Assembly: GCA_016839585.1 (NCBI GenBank)
Contig: JAEOTZ010000050.1
Span: forward strand, 1-64,000
DNA from: Promethearchaeota archaeon
GTDB taxonomy: Archaea; Asgardarchaeota; Lokiarchaeia; Sigyniarchaeales; SOKP01
Reading direction: 5' to 3'
DNA: 64,000 nt
Part shown: positions 14,711 to 27,816 of the stretch, one piece after another
How the letters are laid out: each line of letters begins with the position of its first letter
Position numbering within the stretch: position 1 is the stretch's first letter
Position numbers and translations under genes: made by a program
Notes under the pieces: model-generated
Told to the model about the DNA's origin: nothing
The model's input: only the letters and a program-made list of their open reading frames with translations
Databases searched by the model: none

Positions 14711-16111
14711 TTATTTATCAGGATGAGCTACAATACTTTTTAATGGATTAACGATTGCCTCTTTAATCATAGAATAAAATTTCTTTCTAAATTTTTCATT
14801 ATTTTCAATTACTGGTATAAGCTGCTCATTCATTTTTTTTGCCATTTCATCATTTTGTGGAAACGTATCATAGAATCCCTGTTTTTCATAATACTTATCA
14901 TCTGCCCGAAATATTAATCGAAGTCTACTATAAACAGCATCACGAAAAAGTAATTTTCCACCTACACTAAGATAAGTTTCAGGTTGTATATAATTAGAAT
15001 TAGAAAAACGAATTAGTTGGTGAGCACAATTCTGAAGCACCGAATTGATTTCAGCAGAATCCCCAAATTCGTCGGTGATAAAATCAACACAATTAGATCC
15101 TTGAGACTCCAAATACGCTTGAAAGATCTGTTTAATATTTGGAATTTGACTAAGAGGACCCGAAATAATAAAGGCAATTTGCTTTCCTATTAAAGTTGGA
15201 ACATGATTATTAAAAAAAGCTCTGTCAAAAACCATTTTCCATCGTGAAGATAAATATCTATCTTTTATATTTCCAGCAAAAACCAAAATATCTGAAGGTT
15301 TAAGTTTTTGGTTCCAAAAAGCCATAAACTCGTCTTTCTCTTTATAAACACATTGGTTATCATACCCACACTGACAACAACCAAGACATCCTCCTTTAAT
15401 ATTAATATCATAAATATTGATAATTTCAATATTTTCAGTGAATGAATTGCGAAATGTGTTAATCATCTTCCCTAAATTTGTCCTATCATCAGTTGAATCT
15501 GTTATAATAAGGATCTTTTTACCTTCAGTACTAATTTTATTTTTTTTAACCTCTATCTTATTCGGGTTATAACTAAAATTCCGGTAATTAAGAGGTGGAA
15601 AATGTTTGGAGGTGGGTATATTATTTTCAATTGCATAAAAAAAGTTTTTTGCAAAATGAATTAACTTAGTTCTATTTTCAGATCTGAATAATTCATTCAT
15701 ATCAGGAGAAAATTTTCCTACGTACTTCATTTCGAGATCATCACAAATAGCATGCAAATAGTTATGAGCTGTATGGTCAAAAAAGTGAATTGAGGTCGTT
15801 AAAGCTACAGTATATTTATCTTTAAAAGCACCTTTGGCATTTCTTTCAGTAATAAGTTCAATGAATCGTTTATATTGAGATGGTACAAGTAAAACATATA
15901 CAGGAGTCCCCCAAATGATTCCATCTGATGCTTTAATTTCTTCGATAATCTCGTAAAATTTTTCTTGATCCCTATCAAGATGTTTAATTTGCTGAGCTAC
16001 ATTTAAGATTTTTAATTCATGCTGGGGAAATTTTTTCTGAATGTATAAGATATATTGCATAGTAACACTTAGATCACCTTTAGGGCTTCCATTTAAAACT
16101 ATAATCTTCAT
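14711..16111 (-). CDS. Tandem flavodoxin-fold NAD(P)H-dependent FMN reductase / iron-sulfur flavoprotein
   Basis: LNGSPKG, GTPVY; second domain with the Isf-type motif CLGCCQCGYDNQC. Confidence 0.8.
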   Translation of the reverse strand: MKIIVLNGSPKGDLSVTMQYILYIQKKFPQHELKILNVAQQIKHLDRDQEKFYEIIEEIKASDGIIWGTPVYVLLVPSQYKRFIELITERNAKGAFKDKYTVALTTSIHFFDHTAHNYLHAICDDLEMKYVGKFSPDMNELFRSENRTKLIHFAKNFFYAIENNIPTSKHFPPLNYRNFSYNPNKIEVKKNKISTEGKKILIITDSTDDRTNLGKMINTFRNSFTENIEIINIYDINIKGGCLGCCQCGYDNQCVYKEKDEFMAFWNQKLKPSDILVFAGNIKDRYLSSRWKMVFDRAFFNNHVPTLIGKQIAFIISGPLSQIPNIKQIFQAYLESQGSNCVDFITDEFGDSAEINSVLQNCAHQLIRFSNSNYIQPETYLSVGGKLLFRDAVYSRLRLIFRADDKYYEKQGFYDTFPQNDEMAKKMNEQLIPVIENNEKFRKKFYSMIKEAIVNPLKSIVAHPDK

Positions 16112-16294
16112 TTCTGTAATTCTTCTCTTAAATGATGATTGGTATTTGTTAGAAATAAATAATTAATAAATAATTAATTATTGCATATTCAGTAAATTAC
16201 CTACAATTTTGTATTTTTTAATTTATCATAATAGTATAAATTGTGAAATTTTGGGATGCTTACATCAAAGAGCTTCTTTAAATTCAATATAATA

Positions 16295-17047
16295 TTATTC
16301 AATTGACTCAATATTTTTCCCAACAACTCCAATATAAACAACAGTCTCATTTAGGCCGTCAATATTCAGCAAGTTGTTTAACTCATCATCATAAATTGCA
16401 CCAATTGTACAAGCTCCAAGTCCTAATGCTTCAGCAATTAAGTAAAAATTCTGACCAATATGACCACAATCCATATAAATGTATCTATAACATCTCTGTA
16501 AGTATTTCCATTTTGATCTTTCAATCACAGCAGTCCAAATAAAGTTTATAGCAGAGTTGTATGTCATTTCTTGCCCTAAAGCCCCTTCAGTTACATCATG
16601 ACGGAAATCTCCTTCTTTTAATAACTCAAGGGCATGTTCAGGAATATTATAATGATAAACTCCTTGTTTAAGATTATCAACATTATTTACAACCGGATAA
16701 GTCTCTATAGGATAAAGCCCTCCAGCAGATGGAGTAGTACGAAAAGCATATTGTGGAAAAATTCTTGTAAGTCCTGACATCCCGAATAAAAGTAAGCTCA
16801 TTCCCATCAAAGTCAGTGGTTTATCTTTAAATTCGCGAGTAGAATGGCGATTCTGTATCGTCTTCCAAAAGCTTATTTTCTCGTTAAAATCTGGTTTAGG
16901 TAATTTGATCTTCTTAATAGCATTTGGAAAAGTTTTATATGTTTTTGGTTTATATGCCCAATCTAAATAATGTTTAGGTAATTTACCTCTATAATACTTA
17001 GATTTTTGCTGGAATTTATCGCCAAAATTATCTAAATTCTCACTCAT
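16295..17047 (-). CDS. SagB/ThcOx-family FMN-dependent dehydrogenase (nitroreductase fold)
   Basis: RHSTREF, RTTPSAGGLYP, DCGHIGQN, GACTIGA. Confidence 0.9.
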   Translation of the reverse strand: MSENLDNFGDKFQQKSKYYRGKLPKHYLDWAYKPKTYKTFPNAIKKIKLPKPDFNEKISFWKTIQNRHSTREFKDKPLTLMGMSLLLFGMSGLTRIFPQYAFRTTPSAGGLYPIETYPVVNNVDNLKQGVYHYNIPEHALELLKEGDFRHDVTEGALGQEMTYNSAINFIWTAVIERSKWKYLQRCYRYIYMDCGHIGQNFYLIAEALGLGACTIGAIYDDELNNLLNIDGLNETVVYIGVVGKNIESIE

Positions 17048-17143: not shown

Positions 17144-17380
17144 TTATTTAACTGCTTCGAAATATATATACCACTGTTCATCATCGTCTATGAATTCTGT
17201 TCCGAGATGCTTATGTTTTGTTTTAGCTAAATCTCTAGGAACGCTCTCAGATGCTGGCTTGTAATCAGTAATTACTTTTAAAACTGTGCCCGGTCTCATT
17301 TTCATGAGTTGTTTTTTAGTTTTTAAAGCAGGAACAGGACATACTAATCCGCAGACATTTAATTCCATATCAAATTTCAT
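17144..17380 (-). CDS. tusA: TusA-family sulfur carrier (second copy)
   Basis: LNVCGLVCPVP (CPxP) motif, 78 aa. Confidence 0.88.
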   Translation of the reverse strand: MKFDMELNVCGLVCPVPALKTKKQLMKMRPGTVLKVITDYKPASESVPRDLAKTKHKHLGTEFIDDDEQWYIYFEAVK

Positions 17381-17407
17381 AATTTTTACCTCTTAATTTT
17401 TTTAATT

Positions 17408-19879
17408 TTAATCACACATTAAAGTAAATATTGGTTCATCCATACCTGGTTCAACCTTCATTTCAACCTGCATTAATTGAGCCAATCGAAGTGCCTCATA
17501 TCGTACTTTTTTAGGCTCCAACTCTAAATTTTTTACCATATCGCTTATGGTGCTTGGTCCTTGAAGGGTGATATAATCTAGAACTTGTTGCCTTGGAGCT
17601 TTTACAAAAGTTAAAAGTTCTCTTTTTGATTTAAGATTAATAGCTTTATTCAATTCATCCTTATTCACTTTTCCTTCTTCAAATAAACCTTTTTTAATAG
17701 CATTTTCTACAATTTCTTTACCTCTGTCAGTCCATGCTACTACCGTCGTGTAGCCCTTTTGAGAACCAACCTCACCAGCAGTTAAATCGGAATAAATTGC
17801 TGGAAAATCCTGGCAATGTGAACAGAAGTGATTGCAGCTTAAACAACGACGTGCTTCTTGTAATGCCATTTCTTCATTGAACATCTGATCAATTTCATCA
17901 AAACTCCACTGAATCTCTTCTGTAGCTTCTAATAAAGTCTCCGGCTTTAATGAATAATCTTTTGGAGGTTTTTTTGGACCAGTAAAGAACATTTTATCTT
18001 GTTTATACCGACCGGCTATCATATCTTTACCTTTTAAAAATTTATCAATTGAAATTGCAGCTTCCTTTCCGTGAGCAATCGCTGCGATTGCTACTGCTTT
18101 TGAATTGTTAATTATATCCCCACCAGCAAAAACTCCTGGTATGTTAGTTTCAAAAGTAATTTCATTTATTTTGATTTTATTTCTTTCTTTTTCTAACTTG
18201 TTATCAGTCGCATCATCAATAAGTTCAAAATCTACAGCTTGACCAACTGCTATAACAATTGAATCGATTGGAATTTCGTACTCAGAACCCTCAATTATAT
18301 TTAACGATCGTCTACCATTCTCATCAGGTGAACTCCATTCTGTTTTGTGGCAATTTAACACTAATTTACCATCTTTATTTTGGGTAATTTTAGATGTTGA
18401 AGTTGAAAAGTGATATTGCATGTATTTAAATTCATTTTCTGGAATATCTTTCAAAACTAATTCAAGTTGTTCTTCTGACATGATATCAACAAGATGAATT
18501 TTATCAGCCCCTAATCGGAGGGCAGTTTGTGCAACATCAACTGCAACCGGACCACCCCCAATGATACCTAAGGTTTTTCCCTTGAATTCTTCTTTTTTTT
18601 CCCAATAGCGATATTTTCTATCAATAAGAAATCTAATAGCAACATGAACATCAGGGAGATCTTCTCCTTCTAAATGAAGTGTTCGTGGTTTATATTGACC
18701 TGTACCAATGAATATAGCTTCAAAACCATCATTTTTTAGATCTGCTATTGTCATCTCAGGTCCTAATGCTTTATTAAGTTGAATCTCAACACCTGCATTT
18801 TTTATCATTTCAACATCATAGTCCAATACATAGTTTGGCAATCTAAATTGTGGAACACCAAATCTCAACATACCTCCTGTTTGATCGGCTTTTTCAAAAA
18901 TTTTTGGAGCATATCCTAACTTTGCCAAATAATATGCGGCAGTTAATCCTGCTGGTCCAGAACCGATAATTGCTATTTTTTTACCATTCTTTTTAGATTT
19001 TCCCTTTGTTTTTACACTATTTTTATCACCATGCTTCATTTCCCACTCAGTGACGAATTTTTTCAATTCACGAATAGCTACCGGGTGATCGTCACCAATC
19101 AGGGTGCAACCATGCTCGCATTCATTAGTACAAATTCTACCACAAATTGAAGGCAGTGGATTATTCTCACGAATTAAATCTACTGCCTCTTGATTTTTTC
19201 CTTGCCTTATCAATGATATATATCCTTGGGCATTAACACCTGAAGGGCAACCGTTACAACAAGGTGAACAAATTAAACCCATATCGGTTTGTTCTGTTCT
19301 CATATGAGAATTACAAAATAAACCTATCTTCAAAATTTCTCTATTCATTTGGGTCTCTAAATCGGCGGCACCTCTCATTTCACATGGAACTCCAACTATT
19401 CCTATTGGTTCAAATGTTTCACCCATTAAGTCCACCAATTTTTCGAGAACTCCCGAACGACCATAAACAACTCCTGCTTTTTCTATAACTTCATTAGGAT
19501 CAGATACTTTGTCTGCTTGAGGTTTATCACCAATATCTTGGACCATTACTATATCAGTAAGACTTTTTTCCTCTAAAAGATTTTTAGCTATTGTTGTAAC
19601 AAAACCACCATTAGCTGCCTTTGCCAAAATCTTAGGATCTTTACTTCTCAGGGAATAAATGCCTTTAGGTTGTTTTTGTATAAACTGTTTTTGGATAACT
19701 TGAGGGCAGCTTTGATAGCATTTACCACAATACTGACCATTTCTCTCAAGGATACAATAATCTTTTAATATTGGACGTAGTACTTCCATCTCAATATGTT
19801 TACATGAACCTGCACATAATCCACAGCCTTGACATAACCCAACATCAATAATTTCTTTGTTTAATAACTCAAAACTCAT
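17408..19879 (-). CDS. FrhB-like FAD/Fe-S protein with an inserted GltD/NfnB-like NAD(P)H-FAD module and a C-terminal wHTH
   Basis: N-terminal ferredoxin + AANGGFVTT, VGVPCE, IGLFC; then PCCNGCP..ICGRICTNECE, GSGPAG, GGGPVA, FAGGD, RCLSC; then CSHCQDF..SDLTAGEVGS..GYTTVV; helical wHTH at the end. Confidence 0.8.
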   Translation of the reverse strand: MSFELLNKEIIDVGLCQGCGLCAGSCKHIEMEVLRPILKDYCILERNGQYCGKCYQSCPQVIQKQFIQKQPKGIYSLRSKDPKILAKAANGGFVTTIAKNLLEEKSLTDIVMVQDIGDKPQADKVSDPNEVIEKAGVVYGRSGVLEKLVDLMGETFEPIGIVGVPCEMRGAADLETQMNREILKIGLFCNSHMRTEQTDMGLICSPCCNGCPSGVNAQGYISLIRQGKNQEAVDLIRENNPLPSICGRICTNECEHGCTLIGDDHPVAIRELKKFVTEWEMKHGDKNSVKTKGKSKKNGKKIAIIGSGPAGLTAAYYLAKLGYAPKIFEKADQTGGMLRFGVPQFRLPNYVLDYDVEMIKNAGVEIQLNKALGPEMTIADLKNDGFEAIFIGTGQYKPRTLHLEGEDLPDVHVAIRFLIDRKYRYWEKKEEFKGKTLGIIGGGPVAVDVAQTALRLGADKIHLVDIMSEEQLELVLKDIPENEFKYMQYHFSTSTSKITQNKDGKLVLNCHKTEWSSPDENGRRSLNIIEGSEYEIPIDSIVIAVGQAVDFELIDDATDNKLEKERNKIKINEITFETNIPGVFAGGDIINNSKAVAIAAIAHGKEAAISIDKFLKGKDMIAGRYKQDKMFFTGPKKPPKDYSLKPETLLEATEEIQWSFDEIDQMFNEEMALQEARRCLSCNHFCSHCQDFPAIYSDLTAGEVGSQKGYTTVVAWTDRGKEIVENAIKKGLFEEGKVNKDELNKAINLKSKRELLTFVKAPRQQVLDYITLQGPSTISDMVKNLELEPKKVRYEALRLAQLMQVEMKVEPGMDEPIFTLMCD

Positions 19880-19881
19880 TA

Positions 19882-21117
19882 TTATCCCTCTCTAATTTTA
19901 ATTTCTTTAATTATCCCATTAGAATCTATGCTATATTCTACAAAACCATTCTTATAGGTTCCCTCAACCAGTTCAAAAATATGGGTTTTATAATTATCAA
20001 AATTATCTTCCTCTTTAATTTGCGATTTGAATCCACCAAAAAAGACATTTGATAAATTCATATTACCGGCAATTTTCCGAATTTCATTAGTTACTTTTTC
20101 ATACTGTTTTGCATCATGCATTTCAATTGCTTTCTGTAATTCTTTTTCTAATTTTAACAATTCTTCACGATATTTCTTTGTTTCCTCACTTATTTCAATT
20201 TGATTTGCTTTTTCGTATGGTTCAATTATTTTGAGAGTTAATAAAATCGATTTATCCCCTCCTAATAATCCTGTAATTAATGGCAATTCCTCAATTAATC
20301 TTCCAATAAATACATCTTCTAATAGTTTACCTGAAGATTCAATCCTTCCTTTAGGCAAACCGGATGTAGCTAATGAAAATCTAAAAAAGTTTCCAAGGAT
20401 ATCCGGGAGGCTTTTAGTCACATCATCCTCTTCGTCTGCAAGTTTATCAGTTGCTCCCTTTTCAGAGTGTTCAGTAGCCACTTCAATGTTTCCCATAAGA
20501 GTACCAAACATTCCTAGCATTCTGATACCAGACCTTTCAACCATAGGTTTGCAACCTCTGCAGGGTGTATTATAATCAATACATCGTTCTTGACATTCTT
20601 TAGCAATAAATCCAATACATAGAAATCCTAAATCATTAAAGCAGGTTTCGTTATCAACTAATTCAATTTGCCGGTGAACTGTATCTAGATATTCGCATGT
20701 TGCCCTACGATTACACACTTCACAGAGAGTTCTAAGTTTCGATGGTTTTTCTCCGTTAATTGCAGTTTTTAGTTCCTCAATTTCTCCTAAACATCCATTA
20801 ATGTTTATGGGATTATCAATTAAGTTTTTTAGGGGTGAGATTTCATGACCATGTTGATTTGCTAATGCAAAAATACCTCCCATACTTGTACAATTTCCAT
20901 ATGCGATAACTTTTTCTGAGTTAGCTTTAATTCTTTCCAGATTTTCCTTATTATGTGGTAATAGGTATCCTGTAATTACAGCAACTTGAGTTTTTTCTCC
21001 TTTCCAATTTTGAGGATTAGCAATAAATTGTACTTTATAGCTAGGATCAAGCTTTAGAAGTAAAGATTCGTTATAACACTTATTACAACCATTAAATTGA
21101 AATACTTTAACATCCAT
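19882..21117 (-). CDS. MvhG/VhuG-like [NiFe]-hydrogenase small-subunit homolog with a C-terminal large-subunit-like extension
   Basis: GCNKC, AYGNCTSMGG, INGC, CEVC, CF..LGFLCIG, CRGC; about 150 aa extension resembling MvhA without its Cys motifs. Confidence 0.75.
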   Translation of the reverse strand: MDVKVFQFNGCNKCYNESLLLKLDPSYKVQFIANPQNWKGEKTQVAVITGYLLPHNKENLERIKANSEKVIAYGNCTSMGGIFALANQHGHEISPLKNLIDNPININGCLGEIEELKTAINGEKPSKLRTLCEVCNRRATCEYLDTVHRQIELVDNETCFNDLGFLCIGFIAKECQERCIDYNTPCRGCKPMVERSGIRMLGMFGTLMGNIEVATEHSEKGATDKLADEEDDVTKSLPDILGNFFRFSLATSGLPKGRIESSGKLLEDVFIGRLIEELPLITGLLGGDKSILLTLKIIEPYEKANQIEISEETKKYREELLKLEKELQKAIEMHDAKQYEKVTNEIRKIAGNMNLSNVFFGGFKSQIKEEDNFDNYKTHIFELVEGTYKNGFVEYSIDSNGIIKEIKIREG

Positions 21118-21559
21118 CTTTTATCGTCCCCTCATCTTTAATTGCATTTGATAATCTCTCTACAATGTCTTCAAAATCTCCTACAGCTGTTTCGCCTTCT
21201 GCTGCCCTAGATGTATACTGGTTAATGAATTGATCGCTATATCCTAACTCTTTAAATAACTTTTTCATGAGTTTAATTCTATGCATTGAAAGTATATTTC
21301 CATTAAAAAAGTGGCAAGCTCCTAAACAGCATCCAACACAAGCAACAGCATCTGCCCCATTATTTAATGCATCCATGATCTGAATAGGACCGACTTGACC
21401 AGTACATTGAACTCTTATTATTCTTATTGCCGGATCATATTTCATTCGTGCTACACCTGCAGTATTAGCAGAACCTTGTCCACATTCGTTACACATGAAA
21501 ACAACCACATCCTGAATCTTTCCTTGAATTTCTTCATCCACTACTTCACATTCAGTCAT
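21107..21559 (-). CDS. mvhD: MvhD-type [2Fe-2S] adaptor subunit
   Basis: FMCNEC, IRVQCTG, GADAV..GC..GACHF..GN; ATG overlaps the hdrA stop (ATGA). Confidence 0.9.
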   Translation of the reverse strand: MTECEVVDEEIQGKIQDVVVFMCNECGQGSANTAGVARMKYDPAIRIIRVQCTGQVGPIQIMDALNNGADAVACVGCCLGACHFFNGNILSMHRIKLMKKLFKELGYSDQFINQYTSRAAEGETAVGDFEDIVERLSNAIKDEGTIKDGC

Positions 21560-23586
21560 TCGCAAATAGCACCTCCGCCAGAAACGGCAATTATTTCATC
21601 TAATAATTGTTCATCTCTAAAATTGATTAACTGAATTGCTCCTGTAGGACAAACAGGCATACACATACCACAAGACTTACATGCCACCTCATTTACAGAT
21701 GGAATTCCATTTTCATCTATATCTATTGCTGCCGGAGCACAAATAGTTTTACAAAGTCCACATTTTACACATAAATCATAATCAATTGAAGGAATTAACA
21801 TTTCTCTTTCGATATATCCTTTTACCAATGGAGCCGCTGCTAAAGCCGCAGCACTTCCAGCATGAGCAACAGTCTCAGATATATCTTTTGGTCCTTGTAT
21901 TACACCCGCCAAGAAAATTCCTCCCTTACTACTCAAGGTAGGATTCATTTTTATATGAAATTCTTTTAAGAAACCTTCTTTTGATCTTAGAATATGAAGC
22001 TTCGAACCAAGTGGACCAATTCCCTCAGGAGGAACCATAGCAGCAGAAAGTACAACTAAATCAGCTTTTAATTTTAAAGGAGTTTGAGTTAATGTATCTT
22101 CAACAATTACACTTAAATCACCTGAAATTGGATCTTTAATGATTTCAGATGGTCTTCCGCGAATAAATCTTACTCCAATCTCTTGAGCAGATTTATATAA
22201 TTCTTCAAAATTTAATCCCGGGGTCCTAATATCTATATAACATATAGATACATTAGTATCAGGGTAATTTTCTTTGATAATACGAGCGTTTTTTATAGCA
22301 AACTTACAACATACACCAGTACAATATTGATTGCCAACTTGATCATTTCTACTTCCTACACACTGGATCATAACAACAGATTTAGGAATTTTTCCATCAG
22401 ATGGTCGTAATACTTCACTATTTGTAAGTGATGTTGGAGATAACATTCTTTCTAACTTTAGCTGTGTAATAACATCTTCATATCCTTCTTGACCATAATG
22501 ATAAGGTTCAATTTCAGAAGGATCATATTCATCATATCCTGCAGCAACGATAATCGAGCCAACTTTTACGGTTTTTGTCTCAGGCTGCATAGAAAAATCA
22601 ATAGCCTGAACAGGACATATGTTAATACAGGTATTACACTCAATACAATTTTTTTTATCTCTAATGTATGTAGCTGGTATTGCTTGAGGATAAGCTTTAT
22701 AGATTGCATTTCTCATAGACATTCCCATATCCCATTCACTTGGTAATTCTACAGGACAGTGTGCAGCACATTCGCCACAAGATGTACAATTATCTTTCAC
22801 ATATCTTGGCTTTATTTCAATTTCAACCTCAAAATTCCCTAATGAACCATCAACACTTTTAATTTGAGCATTTGTATAAAGTTTTATTAATGGATGATTA
22901 GCTACGCCATTAGTAAGTGGAGATATTGAACACTGTGGACATTCTAAAGTTGGGAATGTTTTATTTAACCGTGTCATATGACCTCCTATAGTTGATTCTT
23001 TTTCTACTAGATAAACAGGAATTCCTAATTCTGCTAAATCATAAGATGATCGGAGACCAGCAATTCCAGCACCGATAACTAACGCTGCTTTTGTCGTTGG
23101 TATTTTTCTTGTTTCTACATCTTCTAATTTTCTTGATCGATTGACTCCTGCTTCAACCAATCTCATAGCTTTTTGCGTTGCTTTCTCTTTTTCTTTTTGA
23201 TGAACCCAACTGTCATACTCTCTCACATTAACCTGTTGATGACGATGTTTGTTCAATCCAACCTCTTCAATTGCTCTAGCAAAGGTTTTTCCATGCTGAT
23301 TTTTGGAGCATGAAGCTACAACAGTTCTATTAACTCCAAGTTCTTCGATAGAATCTTTGACCATTTGAACTCCTGGTTTGGAACACATAAACATATAATG
23401 TTCAGCTTTCACTACATTTGGTAATGTCGAAGCATATTCCGCAACTTTAGCAACATCCACAGTTCCAGCAATATTATGTCCACAATGACACATGAATACT
23501 CCTATTCGTGGTTCTTCGTTTTCCAATCTTTCAACCTTTTCCCCTAATTGTTCAGTCTTCTTAACTTTTCCTTCTTTAACAGTCAA
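21556..23586 (-). CDS. hdrA: Heterodisulfide reductase subunit A
   Basis: CHCGHNIAG, GAGIAG, KTFPTLECPQC, inserted 2x[4Fe-4S], IQCVGSR, YCTGVCC, QGPKDI, C-terminal ferredoxin. Confidence 0.95.
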   Translation of the reverse strand: MTVKEGKVKKTEQLGEKVERLENEEPRIGVFMCHCGHNIAGTVDVAKVAEYASTLPNVVKAEHYMFMCSKPGVQMVKDSIEELGVNRTVVASCSKNQHGKTFARAIEEVGLNKHRHQQVNVREYDSWVHQKEKEKATQKAMRLVEAGVNRSRKLEDVETRKIPTTKAALVIGAGIAGLRSSYDLAELGIPVYLVEKESTIGGHMTRLNKTFPTLECPQCSISPLTNGVANHPLIKLYTNAQIKSVDGSLGNFEVEIEIKPRYVKDNCTSCGECAAHCPVELPSEWDMGMSMRNAIYKAYPQAIPATYIRDKKNCIECNTCINICPVQAIDFSMQPETKTVKVGSIIVAAGYDEYDPSEIEPYHYGQEGYEDVITQLKLERMLSPTSLTNSEVLRPSDGKIPKSVVMIQCVGSRNDQVGNQYCTGVCCKFAIKNARIIKENYPDTNVSICYIDIRTPGLNFEELYKSAQEIGVRFIRGRPSEIIKDPISGDLSVIVEDTLTQTPLKLKADLVVLSAAMVPPEGIGPLGSKLHILRSKEGFLKEFHIKMNPTLSSKGGIFLAGVIQGPKDISETVAHAGSAAALAAAPLVKGYIEREMLIPSIDYDLCVKCGLCKTICAPAAIDIDENGIPSVNEVACKSCGMCMPVCPTGAIQLINFRDEQLLDEIIAVSGGGAICE

Positions 23587-23587
23587 G

Positions 23588-24499
23588 TTAAATTACCTCC
23601 TCTTCTTTTTCTTCTCCTCCAAAAATGTACTCTCTGCCCATTAATTGGTATTGAAGACCAATAAATTCTTGATCCATACCCATACAATAAGCAGTAAGTT
23701 GAGAAAGATGAATTACTGGATAATCATAATTACAACTTTTATTTTTGTTTAGATAATCTTGACCCGTTTCATATTGTAAGTGACAAAAAGGACAAATGTC
23801 AAGTATAAAATCAGGTTTCACTTCATCAATATTCTTCATTTTTTCTCCAAAAATTCTCATACTTGCTGTTCCATCGTAAGCTTTTACTCCACCACCAGCA
23901 CCGCAACAAGTAAGTTGTTCTTTGAACCTTACAGATTCTATGCCTAACGCCTCAACAAATTCTTCAATAATTGTTGGTCCTTCAGAACTTTCAATTTCTC
24001 TAATTCTAGTTGGTTTTAAGAAATGACAACCGTAATGGATTACTGCTCGAGCATTAACTTTTCTAATAATGACATCTTCTATTCCCCATGGTCCAACTTC
24101 ATAACCTAATACCTCAGCTACATGTCTAACATCAATCGTTCCCCTAAACTCATAATTACCAATAAGTTTCAATTTTTCATTAACTAGTTCTCTATGCTCT
24201 TTGTTTTCTTTTAAATGTTTATTGACCTCTTGAAGCGTGCCAAAACAACCATTACACACAGTTAAAATGTCAGAATCTAACTTTTCGGCAATACATAAAT
24301 TTCTTGCTGCAGCAACCATCCAATCACCTTTATTAAATGATCGGAAGACTCCTGGTGCAGGACAACATGTAGCTCTTTCCATATCTAAAATTTCATATCC
24401 TAGTTTTTGCATTACAAATTTCGTTGATTTTTCAATAGCAGGATATCGATTTGGCATCAAACACCCTAAAAAGAATGCAAATGTGTTTTCTTTAACCAT
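23588..24499 (-). CDS. hdrB: Heterodisulfide reductase subunit B
   Basis: Two CCG domains: GC..TCCPAPG..CNGC and HYGCH..TCCGAGGG..CPFC. Confidence 0.95.
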   Translation of the reverse strand: MVKENTFAFFLGCLMPNRYPAIEKSTKFVMQKLGYEILDMERATCCPAPGVFRSFNKGDWMVAAARNLCIAEKLDSDILTVCNGCFGTLQEVNKHLKENKEHRELVNEKLKLIGNYEFRGTIDVRHVAEVLGYEVGPWGIEDVIIRKVNARAVIHYGCHFLKPTRIREIESSEGPTIIEEFVEALGIESVRFKEQLTCCGAGGGVKAYDGTASMRIFGEKMKNIDEVKPDFILDICPFCHLQYETGQDYLNKNKSCNYDYPVIHLSQLTAYCMGMDQEFIGLQYQLMGREYIFGGEEKEEEVI

Positions 24500-24502
24500 T
24501 TT

Positions 24503-25063
24503 TTAAACTTCCTCCTCTTCTTCCTTTTTTTCCTCTTTAACTGGAGGTAAATCGAACATGTGTTTTTCAATATTTTTTAAATCGCGATCATCTCCCTCTT
24601 GTTTAAACTTAAACGCAGTAGGAGGTAGTTCTTCTAAGCCTAATTCAACCCTTCGTTTTTTTACCTCATCATTTATCGGTACCGCATGTCCATAATTCTT
24701 TAAATAACCTACAACAGCTCTATGATTAGGAGAAATATTCCCTAATTTAGTAGCATAATTTCGCAATTCCATAATTACATCTGTAGGTCTCACATCACGC
24801 GGACACCGTTCATAACATTGATAGCATGTAGTACACAGCCAAATATCAGGATCTTTCAATACCGATAAGTCTCCTAATACAACTTTTCTTACGATAGAAC
24901 GAGTCTTTAAGGCAGTCCATCTACCACTTTCACAACTCGCTGTGCATGTCCCACATTGGATGCACTGCCAAATATTTGATTTTCTTTCAATATTTTTAAA
25001 AAATTCTTTATCAAAATCTTCGTCTGTTTTAAATTCCCTTGGTTCTTCTTCTACATCAGACGT
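24503..25063 (-). CDS. hdrC: Heterodisulfide reductase subunit C (186 aa, probable ACG start)
   Basis: Frame is open 68 codons upstream of the called TTG and contains the first cluster WQCIQCGTCTASC; second cluster WLCTTCYQCYERCP. Confidence 0.9.
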   Translation of the reverse strand, partial: TSDVEEEPREFKTDEDFDKEFFKNIERKSNIWQCIQCGTCTASCESGRWTALKTRSIVRKVVLGDLSVLKDPDIWLCTTCYQCYERCPRDVRPTDVIMELRNYATKLGNISPNHRAVVGYLKNYGHAVPINDEVKKRRVELGLEELPPTAFKFKQEGDDRDLKNIEKHMFDLPPVKEEKKEEEEEV

Positions 25064-25116
25064 TTATCATCACCTTTTTTGAAATATAAAATAAAAAAAA
25101 AAAATTTTAATTTTGT

Positions 25117-25533
25117 TTATAGTGAAACTATTCTTCCACCATCGCTCATTTCTAAAAATGCAGCGGCGCCAACAGGATCTTCAGCGATTTCCATTATATC
25201 TTCATGCTTAATTCCCATTAAATCCATAGTCATCTGACATGGAAATAACTTCAAATTACCGTTTTCAACACCGTCCTTAATCAAACCCCATGGATCTTCA
25301 ATTCCAAATTTTTTCATCCTTTTTCTAAATATTTTTGCTCCCATACCTTTCATAGGAGTAGGCATTCCTGCAACTTTAGGTTTAAATTTTTTTGTTAATA
25401 AATTTAAACCCCAAAAAGTAAAGAAAAAATTCATTTTCATATCCATAGCGTCACCTGTTGAACCAAGGATAGCCATCATTGCAAACTTCTCGAATGACTT
25501 ATCCTTTACAATAAAATTTATTGTTTCAGCCAT
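25117..25533 (-). CDS. DsrE2-like sulfur relay protein
   Basis: FFFTFWGL and PCQMTMDLMG..VGAAAFL motifs; ATG after AAGTGA. Confidence 0.85.
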   Translation of the reverse strand: MAETINFIVKDKSFEKFAMMAILGSTGDAMDMKMNFFFTFWGLNLLTKKFKPKVAGMPTPMKGMGAKIFRKRMKKFGIEDPWGLIKDGVENGNLKLFPCQMTMDLMGIKHEDIMEIAEDPVGAAAFLEMSDGGRIVSL

Positions 25534-25683
25534 TTTTTTCACTTTTTTTTAAATTTTTTTTCAATCTTGTATTTTACTTTTAATTATTTGAGTTAACTAA
25601 TTGTTAACCATGACCAATTTTTTTCAATTCAATTTTTAAAAATTTTCTATTTATTTGCTTTCTTACTTTTATGCCCTTACTTA

Positions 25684-26025
25684 TTACATCCATGAAACAA
25701 TCTTTTGTGAATTATCCAATATATCTATGAGTTCATTATATTCAATTGGTTTGATTTTATCATCGAGATAATCAAGAGATATTCCACGTGCTTTTAAATC
25801 TGGAATCATCGCAAAAATAGTAAGGTTTATACTAAAAAGTTCTTTCATTGATTCGGAAACTTTTCCTCTTGAACTACCGCCTATTACTCCGTCATGTATC
25901 AAAATGAATCCAATTTTTGCACCATCAATAGATTGAGTTTTAACAATTGGAAGCAATCGACTTAACTCATTACCATGTCTAGGACTGAATCCGTATAGAT
26001 AAACTATATTTAAATTCTCTGTCAT
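25684..26025 (-). CDS. dsrH: DsrH/TusB-like sulfur relay protein
   Basis: LIHDGV, DLKARGI, IEYNELID, C-terminal VSW. Confidence 0.85.
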   Translation of the reverse strand: MTENLNIVYLYGFSPRHGNELSRLLPIVKTQSIDGAKIGFILIHDGVIGGSSRGKVSESMKELFSINLTIFAMIPDLKARGISLDYLDDKIKPIEYNELIDILDNSQKIVSWM

Positions 26026-26040
26026 TTTTTCCACCCTCCC

Positions 26041-26409
26041 TTAAAATCTAAAACTTGTGTCTGCATTTGCGATTAATTTCGCAAGGTTAACGATATCTAT
26101 AACCTTAAGATTTTCATATTCAACAAAATCCGCTTCAGTTAAACCAGCATCCTCTAAACCAGTATCTAGAATATAAATTTCTAAATCTGAAAGGTCACCC
26201 ATTTCCAATGGTTCCTCGAAAGAATCTACTCCAACCACGGTTGGATCAGCGTTTTTATTTACAAAGTATACAGCATCTCCCATCAAAACTACTTTACAAT
26301 CAATCTCTTCTCCTAAACCCAAAAAACCAGCTGCTAATCTTAGAGCTTCGCGCGCAGAATTTTTACCAACTGGAGATTGATCAACAATAATAACTACTGA
26401 TTTTATCAT
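26041..26409 (-). CDS. dsrF: DsrF/TusC-like sulfur relay protein
   Basis: SPVGKNSAREALR, VLMGDAVY; positioned between dsrE and dsrH. Confidence 0.75.
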   Translation of the reverse strand: MIKSVVIIVDQSPVGKNSAREALRLAAGFLGLGEEIDCKVVLMGDAVYFVNKNADPTVVGVDSFEEPLEMGDLSDLEIYILDTGLEDAGLTEADFVEYENLKVIDIVNLAKLIANADTSFRF

Positions 26410-26412
26410 TTT

Positions 26413-26781
26413 TTAGCCTCCCGTTCCAAAAATTATTAATTTTTCTGATTCTGCTGTCCAATTCGATAGTTCACCTAAACCCTCCTCTTTCGCTCCATCA
26501 ATAAAACATTGCTCTTTCATTCCACAGAGCCCAATCCATGTAGTGCATCCAGCAACCGGAATCTTGTTTTCATTTATGAACTCTTCTAATTTTTTTGGTA
26601 AATTTCTCACAGTAATACCTGTTTCAATATCTTTTTTTATATTATAGACACCACTCCCATAGAAAAAGATCCCCTTAATTTGATTGCCCTTTTCAAGTAT
26701 AGCTTTACTTAATTGTATCAAGGAATCTGTAGCTTCAAATTTATACGGTTCGGTGCTAATCATTATTGTATAAATTAACAT
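26413..26781 (-). CDS. dsrE: DsrE/TusD-like sulfurtransferase
   Basis: EPY, IFFYGSGVYN, active-site-like AGCTTW, GLGEL. Confidence 0.8.
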   Translation of the reverse strand: MLIYTIMISTEPYKFEATDSLIQLSKAILEKGNQIKGIFFYGSGVYNIKKDIETGITVRNLPKKLEEFINENKIPVAGCTTWIGLCGMKEQCFIDGAKEEGLGELSNWTAESEKLIIFGTGG

Positions 26782-26811
26782 AATCGCTCTAACTCGTTTC
26801 TATTGAAGTTT

Positions 26812-27036
26812 TTATGCTTTTTTAATCATGAATGTAATCTGTTCCCTATCTTCTCTCGATTCAAGCAGTTCATCGCCAGTTCTATTTAAAAGTGCTGGAA
26901 CATCTTTTAATGCTCCAATATCGTCTACGATAAGCTCAAGAGTTTGTCCTGAACTCATTTTCTTCAATTCTTTTTTAGTCATTAAAATTGGCATTGGACA
27001 TTTTTTACCTAATGCATTAAGTGTTATATCAGCCAT
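26812..27036 (-). CDS. tusA: TusA-family sulfur carrier
   Basis: LNALGKKCPMPIL, DDIGALKDV; ATG at 27036 after AAGTGA. Confidence 0.92.
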   Translation of the reverse strand: MADITLNALGKKCPMPILMTKKELKKMSSGQTLELIVDDIGALKDVPALLNRTGDELLESREDREQITFMIKKA

Positions 27037-27080
27037 TTTTTTCACTTTCACTTATTTTTTGTTTCGTTTTTTGATTTTTT

Positions 27081-27342: not shown

Positions 27343-27816
27343 ATGGCAGGTATGCCTGAAATAGTAGAATTAGACGATTTAGACAAACAGATATTAAATA
27401 TTATTCAAAATAATGCTAAAGCATCGCTTCGGGATATCGAGAAGGAAATAGATTTAACTACAACCTCAATTCGAATGCGAATCAATCGCTTAAAAGAAAA
27501 AAATGTCATTAAGCAATATATTACACTTATTGATTGCCGTCATTTAGGTTATCGCGAAATGGTAATGGCATCACTTCGAGTAAATTCTTCTTACCCTTTA
27601 GAGGATATTAAAAAAAAAATAGAAGAAATGATAAAAATCAAATATGCCTACATAATAACTGGAGAATATCCAATATTCATTATGGCAAAATGTCTTGATC
27701 ATTCTGATTCAATGGAACTCATTGAAAGACTTCGTAATCTCCCAGGAGTAGAAGAAATTAAGACTCAAATTGTTTTAGATAAAATAAAAGAAGATCCTTC
27801 TGTGATAATACCTTAA
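27343..27816 (+). CDS. Lrp/AsnC family transcriptional regulator
   Basis: LDDLDKQIL..RINRLKEKNVIK HTH plus RAM domain (ITGEYPIF..LPGVEEIKTQIVL). Confidence 0.92.
   Translation: MAGMPEIVELDDLDKQILNIIQNNAKASLRDIEKEIDLTTTSIRMRINRLKEKNVIKQYITLIDCRHLGYREMVMASLRVNSSYPLEDIKKKIEEMIKIKYAYIITGEYPIFIMAKCLDHSDSMELIERLRNLPGVEEIKTQIVLDKIKEDPSVIIP

Follow-up and report, generated by a model that had tools for sequence, protein, structure and literature searches.

We examined a 64,000-nucleotide (nt) window, positions 1 to 64,000 of contig JAEOTZ010000050.1 in the Promethearchaeota archaeon assembly GCA_016839585.1, and focus on a block of genes on its minus strand (17144–27051) that joins a soluble heterodisulfide reductase (Hdr) to genes for sulfur carriers. 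The original prediction, made from the sequence without database searches, had listed twelve co-oriented genes here and placed them in an Asgard archaeon. A scan of the open reading frames (ORFs) in the window with Pfam and NCBIfam assignment recovered the same list, in the order tusA1, dsrE, dsrF, dsrH, dsrE2, hdrC, hdrB, hdrA, mvhD, an mvhG-like gene, frhB with a GltD insert, and tusA2, and the Asgard assignment (Lokiarchaeia) was borne out (Table 1). The abutting and overlapping arrangement described for these genes holds from hdrC to tusA2, where spacing ranges from -11 to +27 nt (overlaps of 10–11 nt, gaps of 1–27 nt) and mvhD overlaps hdrA on one side and the mvhG-like gene on the other. 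Gaps of 3–30 nt separate the genes from tusA1 to dsrH. The description does not extend to the 141 nt between dsrH and dsrE2 or the 53 nt between dsrE2 and hdrC.

Table 1 Features of the Hdr and sulfur-carrier block in the window, with the basis of each assignment.
Feature	Position	Strand	Basis
tusA1, sulfur carrier; likely start ATG at 27036	26812..27051	-	Pfam TusA 1.4e-22
dsrE (TusD-like)	26413..26781	-	Pfam DsrE; NCBIfam TusD match below cut-off
dsrF (TusC-like)	26041..26409	-	Pfam DsrE; NCBIfam TusC match below cut-off
dsrH (TusB-like, without cysteine)	25684..26034	-	Pfam DsrH 3.4e-11
dsrE2-like carrier	25117..25542	-	Pfam DrsE_2 1e-21
dsrE2-hdrC spacer: T13 run, TATA-like box, GGTG	25064..25116	-	Sequence; layout in 22 loci; function inferred
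hdrC, ACG start	24503..25063	-	TIGR03290 175.6 bits (cut-off 160)
hdrB, two CCG domains	23588..24499	-	TIGR03288 361 bits (cut-off 345)
hdrA, full-length type I, 676 amino acids	21556..23586	-	phmmer vs 9sfi_A/5odc_A 7e-197
mvhD, [2Fe-2S] connector	21107..21565	-	Pfam FlpD 3.3e-32
mvhG fused to putative vestigial [NiFe] large-subunit domain, 411 amino acids (P0001)	19882..21117	-	Oxidored_q6 only in Pfam; fold match
frhB with inserted GltD/NfnB-type module and winged-helix tail, 823 amino acids (P0003)	17408..19879	-	Pfam FrhB_N, Fer4_20, Pyr_redox_2, FrhB_C
tusA2, carrier adjoining Hdr core	17144..17380	-	Pfam TusA 3.1e-19
Lrp/AsnC-family regulator, divergent	27343..27816	+	Pfam HTH_AsnC-type and AsnC_trans_reg

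Judged by sequence, the core of the block is a canonical type I HdrABC-MvhD and neither an sHdr nor a short HdrA. Alignments of 31–40 orthologues of the redox subunits show all eight cluster cysteines of HdrC kept in 31/31 and the MvhD cysteines in 40/40. HdrB retains the CCG cysteines C13, C45, C46, C82, C85, C158, C198, C199, C236 and C239 in 36–37 of 37 orthologues, a ten-cysteine set forming two CCG motifs, as for two non-cubane [4Fe-4S] clusters, and the protein matches methanogen HdrB 9sfi_C and 5odc_B at 1e-89 (phmmer). HdrA aligns over residues 24–668 with its methanogen counterparts, a span taking in the N-terminal cluster domain and both the inserted and the C-terminal ferredoxin domain, and its E379 and K432 fall opposite E356 and K409 of bifurcating HdrA, which have been named as key residues for the bifurcating flavin (PMC12054007). 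The 99%-complete genome contains no match to McrA (PF02249) or ComA (PF02679), searches that did not extend to a ComA-independent coenzyme M (CoM) route or to coenzyme B (CoB) synthesis. The heterodisulfide CoM-S-S-CoB is therefore an unlikely substrate.

The 411-amino-acid (aa) protein encoded after mvhD had been labeled MvhG-like, which holds for residues 1–263, matching MvhG 5odc_E and 9sw2_E in sequence; to that label we add a fused domain that appears to be a vestigial hydrogenase large subunit. The protein was folded from a 19-row alignment and the model was used in an exhaustive structural search. Confidence is high in the N-terminal domain and in residues 260–410 (predicted local distance difference test, pLDDT, mostly 70–97 over residues 263–411) and low in the cluster-binding loop region, as expected because the model contains no cofactors. 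The fold of residues 1–247 matches MvhG 5odc_E (Z 13.8). Over residues 263–411 the only structural matches are to large subunits of the [NiFe] type and to their relatives in complex I, led by FrhA 6qgt_A (Z 12.5, 148 residues aligned), 5aa5_C (Z 11.1) and Nqo4 8qby_D (Z 10.4), with MbsL 6u8y_l (Z 10.2), HyhL 5yxy_A (Z 9.7) and HucL 7uus_A (Z 8.8) following. Because the matched residues are spread over positions 58–523 of a full large subunit, about two thirds of that subunit would have been deleted.

All 13 conserved cysteines of the fusion lie within residues 11–189 and include those of the proximal cluster. The alignment shows no cysteine in residues 263–411 in any of 39 orthologues, and none after residue 189, so that no Ni-Fe site is possible in the remnant. 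In sequence the remnant does not resemble the large subunit encoded by this genome, and its assignment as a vestigial [NiFe] large subunit of ~150 residues is made by fold only. The hydrogenase arm of the block is a catalytically dead, nickel-free fossil. The proposed origin of this input arm is a group 3c hydrogenase in which the catalytic subunit decayed and FrhB, then GltD, was recruited.

No PF00374 large-subunit gene lies within the block, in agreement with the earlier claim that the cluster lacks an intact one. Two intact [NiFe] large subunits are encoded elsewhere in the genome, on contig C49 (hypD-hypE followed by small subunit-large subunit-HdrC-like-HdrB-like) and on contig C59 (hdrA::mvhD-mvhG-mvhA). 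The only large subunit of Candidatus Harpocratesius repetitus also adjoins its own small subunit. The C49 hydrogenase (L044:5626-12441) is divergent, its 434-aa large subunit matching PF00374 well only at the N-terminus. No HdrA was found among the ORFs scanned at that locus, and the same gene set recurs in Harpocratesius (L046). The 441-aa small subunit of the C49 enzyme was considered as a similar fusion and ruled out, the extra length being a duplicated cluster region.

The 823-aa flavoprotein encoded next to the fusion combines two modules. Pfam places FrhB_N at residues 75–146, Fer4_20 and Pyr_redox_2 at 197–604 (1.8e-24 and 7.8e-27) and FrhB_C at 668–739. Residues 3–179 match the FrhB-type chain 8rja_E (Fsr) and residues 686–740 the FrhB C-terminal cluster region, while residues 192–620 match NfnA, NfnB, SudA and GltD (NfnA 9n5u at 6e-89 over 201–619; NfnB 4ylf_B at 3e-72 over 192–618). 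The inner module thus has the layout of GltD, NfnB and SudA: a two-cluster Fer4_20 domain and, after it, Rossmann folds for FAD and NAD(P)H. Both parts of the proposed frhB::gltD are present, but the match to the Pfam FrhB_C model breaks near position 48/78, which indicates that GltD is inserted inside FrhB rather than fused end to end. The NAD(P)H motif reads GxGxxA, yet an Asp follows strand 2, and either NADH or NADPH may be bound. An AlphaFold2 model from a 13-row alignment (mean pLDDT 54.7, predicted template modeling score 0.37) was too poor to show whether the two FrhB halves come together again as an F420/FAD site and was not used. In the genome CofH scores above its cut-off, CofE is encoded twice and FrhB has about a dozen paralogues, which makes F420H2 as plausible a donor as NAD(P)H.

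FrhB without the GltD insert occurs in Thorarchaeota, on the metagenome contig L048 and at loci L016 and L019. The existence of these variants suggests that FrhB alone is ancestral and that GltD is a Lokiarchaeia addition. Other departures were noted in single loci. Downstream of tusA2, L016:1955-4924 and L019:6443-9334, from the same family, carry a distant extra HdrC/HdrB-like pair (27–37% identity). The flavoprotein of Harpocratesius (L038:8980-9393) is only ~140 aa long, an N-terminal ferredoxin part with a winged-helix tail, and its hydride entry is not obvious. At L042:10695-13139 an in-frame TAA interrupts the FrhB::GltD orthologue at codon 498, beside an A7 run, reflecting an assembly error or a pseudogene.

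The sulfur carriers retain their expected reactive residues across orthologues. The CPxP cysteine is kept as C18 of TusA1 in 22/22 and as C14 of TusA2 in 35/35 sequences, and Cys79 of DsrE (equivalent to Cys78) in 25/25. Cys38 of DsrF is present in 25 of the 27 sequences, and DsrE2 has a single Cys102 in all 27. DsrH, the sole DsrH match of this genome, has no cysteine column in its alignment. TusA2 is the most conserved carrier (90–97% identity within the family, 59–77% in distant variants), and its gene follows frhB in every variant. It was also considered as a two-cysteine, DsrC-like substrate. This was rejected, since in MK-D1, Thorarchaeota and L042 the C10 position holds R or Q and another cysteine appears elsewhere; TusA2 reads as a classical one-cysteine carrier. 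A complex prediction of HdrB and HdrC with TusA2 (score 0.00, mark 0.32) counts neither way on binding.

A further carrier locus lies on contig C61 (L047:5479-10772), where tusA, dsrE, a class-V cysteine desulfurase and NifU occur together with a 797-aa protein that joins a CoA-disulfide-reductase-like part to TusA and two rhodanese domains and that resembles an NADH persulfide/polysulfide reductase. Since tusA-dsrE stands beside a cysteine desulfurase there, cysteine is a possible source of the sulfane sulfur. TusA and DsrE3 have been found to carry thiosulfonates (PMC4175335).

The junction between the carrier genes and the redox genes has an unusual structure. No ATG, GTG or TTG precedes the first cluster motif of hdrC, and its start is an ACG at 25063, which an in-frame TAA immediately precedes and which lies 7 nt beyond GGTG (25061–25077, minus strand). 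In the locus alignment the start codon column holds ACG in 10 other loci and ATG in 11. A 1-nt frameshift or assembly error was ruled out because 11 independent assemblies, the window among them, have ACG at the ATG position, and we read the codon as a conserved near-cognate start. In the spacer between dsrE2 and hdrC a T13 run is followed by a TATA-like ATTTTATATTT box, a layout common to 22 loci. The spacer is probably a terminator after dsrE2 combined with an internal promoter for hdrC-tusA2.

A scan of species-representative genomes returned 32 loci, most of them from two genera of one family by genome taxonomy and hence not independent; all that are long enough carry the same twelve genes in the same order at 70–97% identity. 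The lrp gene keeps its divergent position in every locus long enough to show it, except in Promethearchaeum syntrophicum MK-D1 and Lokiarchaeum ossiferum. In these two, identified by exact protein look-up, the complete cluster is present with lrp co-oriented between dsrE2 and hdrC, and the key protein is annotated only as hypothetical. Gene order varies further afield. A Thorarchaeota metagenome-assembled genome has dsrEFH downstream of tusA2 and lacks dsrE2. The metagenome contig L048 has two DsrE-family genes (dsrE, dsrF) upstream of hdrC and also lacks dsrE2, and dsrF/dsrH lie 3 kb away from dsrE2 in Harpocratesius (L038). The Hdr-MvhD-MvhG*-FrhB-TusA core, with the asterisk denoting the fusion, thus adjoins DsrE-family genes in about five gene orders.

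The MvhG fusion was found in 79/400 Asgard genomes (22 of the 90 high-quality ones), and several congeneric genomes lack it despite being 99% complete, which marks the cluster as an accessory block. DsrH occurs in 77/79 genomes with the fusion and in 148/321 without it (225/400 overall). The dependence is one-way: DsrH nearly always accompanies the fusion but is itself common where the fusion is absent. The fusion family is narrow, with 17 matches below 1e-30, about five of them full-length, among 1.84 billion cluster representatives. In the survey of the gene set across genomes suggested by the original prediction, the carriers are co-conserved with hdr through several rearrangements. Contig C137 of genome G073 (L043, 10 kb), assigned to a different family, has genes 74–97% identical to those of the window, and binning contamination or recent transfer is likely. 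Just downstream of tusA2 in the window (14711–17047), two genes encode a nitroreductase of the SagB type (TIGR03605) and a 466-aa product that has FMN_red at its N-terminus, a pair that reappears near the cluster, at variable distance, in several other loci.

We hypothesize, with a confidence a little short of calling it probable, that the product of the block is a flavin-based bifurcating Hdr, located in the cytoplasm and working independently of a hydrogenase, whose acceptor is sulfane sulfur bound to the carriers. Its donor, substrate, docking carrier and reaction direction we infer as follows. Hydride would enter at FrhB::GltD, with the NfnB/GltD-like module accepting NAD(P)H and the FrhB part possibly accepting F420H2. 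By homology with the solved Mvh-Hdr and Elp-Hdr, electrons would pass from the flavoprotein through the clusters of FrhB, MvhG and MvhD to the HdrA flavin, the fused large-subunit remnant serving as a scaffold only. From that flavin one branch would run through HdrC to the two non-cubane clusters of HdrB, where an S-S bond would be reduced, and the other would reduce ferredoxin. The lack of McrA and ComA matches and the neighboring carrier genes together point to an S-S bond on, or delivered by, the carriers. It might be a persulfide, polysulfide or thiosulfonate gathered by TusA, DsrEFH and DsrE2, with TusA2 the most likely to hand it over. Overall, the reaction would serve as an internal electron sink, with sulfide released and the carriers regenerated. 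A dead catalytic scaffold with an exchanged donor arm has a precedent in Elp-Hdr (PMC12350162). More generally, and with somewhat greater reserve, we suggest that TusA- or DsrE-bound persulfide or thiosulfonate may be what canonical bifurcating HdrABC uses physiologically as its high-potential partner in Asgard archaea that are not methanogens.

Several observations weigh against this hypothesis. On sequence, HdrB is very close to CoM-S-S-CoB reductases, and a protein-bound persulfide may not fit it because the pocket of its relatives takes small molecules. The sulfane sulfur/sulfide couple, at about -270 mV, is far below CoM-S-S-CoB at about -140 mV. These potentials leave little driving force for bifurcation from NAD(P)H to ferredoxin and thus favor other sulfur species or the reverse reaction. 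The genome yielded no match to DsrC/TusE (PF04358), for which an E. coli control was positive, and none to the YeeE/YedE importer. DsrEFH is common in Asgard genomes that lack this Hdr, and most of the orthologous loci, belonging to two genera of a single family, are not independent of each other. The original prediction had also linked its reading to relay genes being co-conserved or co-transcribed with hdr. Co-conservation stands, through rearrangements of the locus, but co-transcription is doubtful because a conserved oligo-T tract and TATA-like box precede hdrC, and the relay genes are probably transcribed separately from hdr.

The same complex might instead run in reverse, by confurcation, or act in biosynthesis. 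Reduced ferredoxin together with sulfide or carrier thiols would then be oxidized and NAD(P)+ or F420 reduced, and sulfane sulfur would be loaded on TusA/DsrE for Fe-S clusters, thiolated tRNA or cofactors. We regard this as unlikely, though clearly deserving of attention. By established values, thermodynamics would be favorable, since averaging about -270 and -450 mV gives a potential more negative than that of NAD(P)+. A confurcating Hdr was proposed for MK-D1 by Imachi et al. (PMC7015854), and the tusA-dsrE pair beside a cysteine desulfurase and NifU on contig C61 implies that these carriers also serve biosynthesis. Yet that desulfurase is already available to make persulfides, a large bifurcating machine would be a costly route to trace sulfane sulfur, and the cluster is dispensable, being missing from 99%-complete congeneric genomes. 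The substrate of HdrB might also be a small-molecule disulfide or polysulfide outside the carriers, such as the disulfide of a thiol cofactor, with the carriers building or repairing Fe-S and non-cubane clusters. The score of HdrB above the CoB-CoM HdrB equivalog cut-off and its 1e-89 match to solved methanogen HdrB are consistent with such a substrate, as are the frequency of DsrEFH in genomes without this Hdr and the probably separate transcripts of the carriers. Against it, DsrE-family genes and TusA stay adjacent to the core through about five gene orders in Lokiarchaeia, in Thorarchaeota and on an unplaced contig, every variant has tusA2 translationally close to frhB, and the genome has no ComA/McrA match (an alternative CoM route was not searched). 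On balance we find a small-molecule substrate rather improbable.

The original prediction had further raised the case of a complex that needs an MvhA encoded elsewhere and oxidizes H2. A trans-encoded [NiFe] large subunit would then let the complex oxidize or evolve H2 as a group 3c Mvh-Hdr. PF00374 large subunits do occur in 41/43 good cluster-bearing genomes, and the MvhG part keeps its proximal-cluster cysteines. In a preprint on Nerearchaeum, Hdr and TusA/DsrE are linked to a group 3c hydrogenase. However, co-occurrence is uninformative because [NiFe] hydrogenases are near-universal in these genomes, and the anatomy of the block makes such a partner improbable to a marked degree. Each large subunit here, like the only one of Harpocratesius, has its own adjacent small subunit and Hdr-like partners; the fused remnant by homology occupies the docking place of a large subunit; and a dedicated hydride-entry flavoprotein follows the MvhG fusion in almost every variant. 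It is very unlikely that the carriers and reductase handle selenium, through selenopersulfide or selenide delivery, in place of sulfur. Lokiarchaeia use selenocysteine (PMC9723677), TusA2 matches YedF best, and the GltD module matches YgfK and the 'dicluster near Sec' family, all far below cut-off. These are sub-threshold cross-hits between related families, however. TusA1, DsrEFH and DsrE2 fit sulfur-relay models better, and the block contains no selenium gene.

The role of soluble HdrABC in archaea and bacteria without coenzymes M and B is a long-standing question. Asgard models, including the hydrogen and sulfur syntrophy scenarios of eukaryogenesis, take these genes as an H2-evolving "MvhADG-HdrABC". 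At this locus the hydrogenase part is a nickel-free fossil and the enzyme always stands alongside sulfur carriers. If the proposed bifurcation to carrier-bound sulfur is true, the archaeal relatives of eukaryotes would have a new energy-coupling reaction in which NAD(P)H or F420, ferredoxin and sulfur are joined. The block would also offer, after ElpA and independently of it, a second example of an inactive catalytic subunit that has become a scaffold on the Hdr donor arm. The complete cluster is present in two cultured strains, MK-D1 and L. ossiferum, so the question is directly testable.

Published Asgard reconstructions label such genes MvhADG-HdrABC or Flx-Hdr (PMC7015854, PMC9723677). In our literature search the gene set was described nowhere beyond a hypothesis in a preprint figure legend, which has Hdr reducing TusA/DsrE-bound sulfur with a group 3c hydrogenase in Nerearchaeum (bioRxiv 10.1101/2025.07.22.663070). 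The search returned no account of the dead hydrogenase fusion or of the FrhB::GltD arm.

Compared with MvhADG-/VhuADG-HdrABC (5ODC, 9SW2, 9SFI), the block shares close HdrA, HdrB, HdrC and MvhD proteins with all cofactor ligands, and an MvhG-type three-cluster subunit. It differs in having no catalytic MvhA but only the cysteine-free remnant on MvhG, in the flavoprotein as hydride entry, in the attached sulfur-carrier genes, and in a genome without McrA/ComA match. FlxABCD-HdrABC of Desulfovibrio and syntrophs, which is tied to NAD(P)H, likewise has no hydrogenase and uses FlxD, an MvhD-like subunit, as connector. In this block FlxD alone among the Flx subunits has a counterpart: no products of the type of FlxA, the NAD(P)H flavoprotein, or of the iron-sulfur subunits FlxB and FlxC are encoded, and the input consists of the MvhG remnant and FrhB::GltD. 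The claim that the cluster is neither Flx-Hdr nor Mvh-Hdr with an intact hydrogenase was thus correct on both counts, given also that PF00374 is absent from the block. Elp-Hdr of Methanothermobacter marburgensis (ElpABC-HdrABC, PMC12350162) offers the closest parallel in design, with a dead relative of the donor enzyme as scaffold, an FrhB/FdhB-type hydride entry and an MvhD homologue connecting to HdrA. Elp-Hdr, however, reduces CoM-S-S-CoB in a methanogen. The scaffold here is hydrogenase-derived rather than FdhA-derived, and no FdhA-like protein, as an ElpA-type truncated FdhA would be, is encoded in the block. For its F420H2-oxidizing subunit, the candidate counterpart here has FrhB_N and FrhB_C split by the NfnB/GltD insert.

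The sulfur-oxidizing sHdr-LbpA system (PMC11094781, PMC4175335) resembles the block in combining an Hdr-type enzyme with TusA and DsrE-family sulfur transferases. By comparison, the block has one HdrB/HdrC pair instead of two, a full-length HdrA with ferredoxin domains in place of a short one, no lipoate-binding LbpA product, and MvhD with an electron-input arm. It was rightly distinguished from sHdr in the original prediction. The relay from TusA through DsrEFH and DsrC to the CCG-domain, HdrD-like DsrK shares the TusA CPxP cysteine, the DsrE Cys78-equivalent and a CCG-domain enzyme as the likely end point. It differs in that here there is no DsrC/TusE match, DsrH has no cysteine, and the enzyme is a soluble HdrABC and not the membrane-bound DsrMK. 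Finally, a known system with GltD in HdrA at the ferredoxin site also places a GltD/NfnB-type NAD(P)H module on an Hdr-associated electron chain, whereas here GltD sits inside FrhB on the donor arm.

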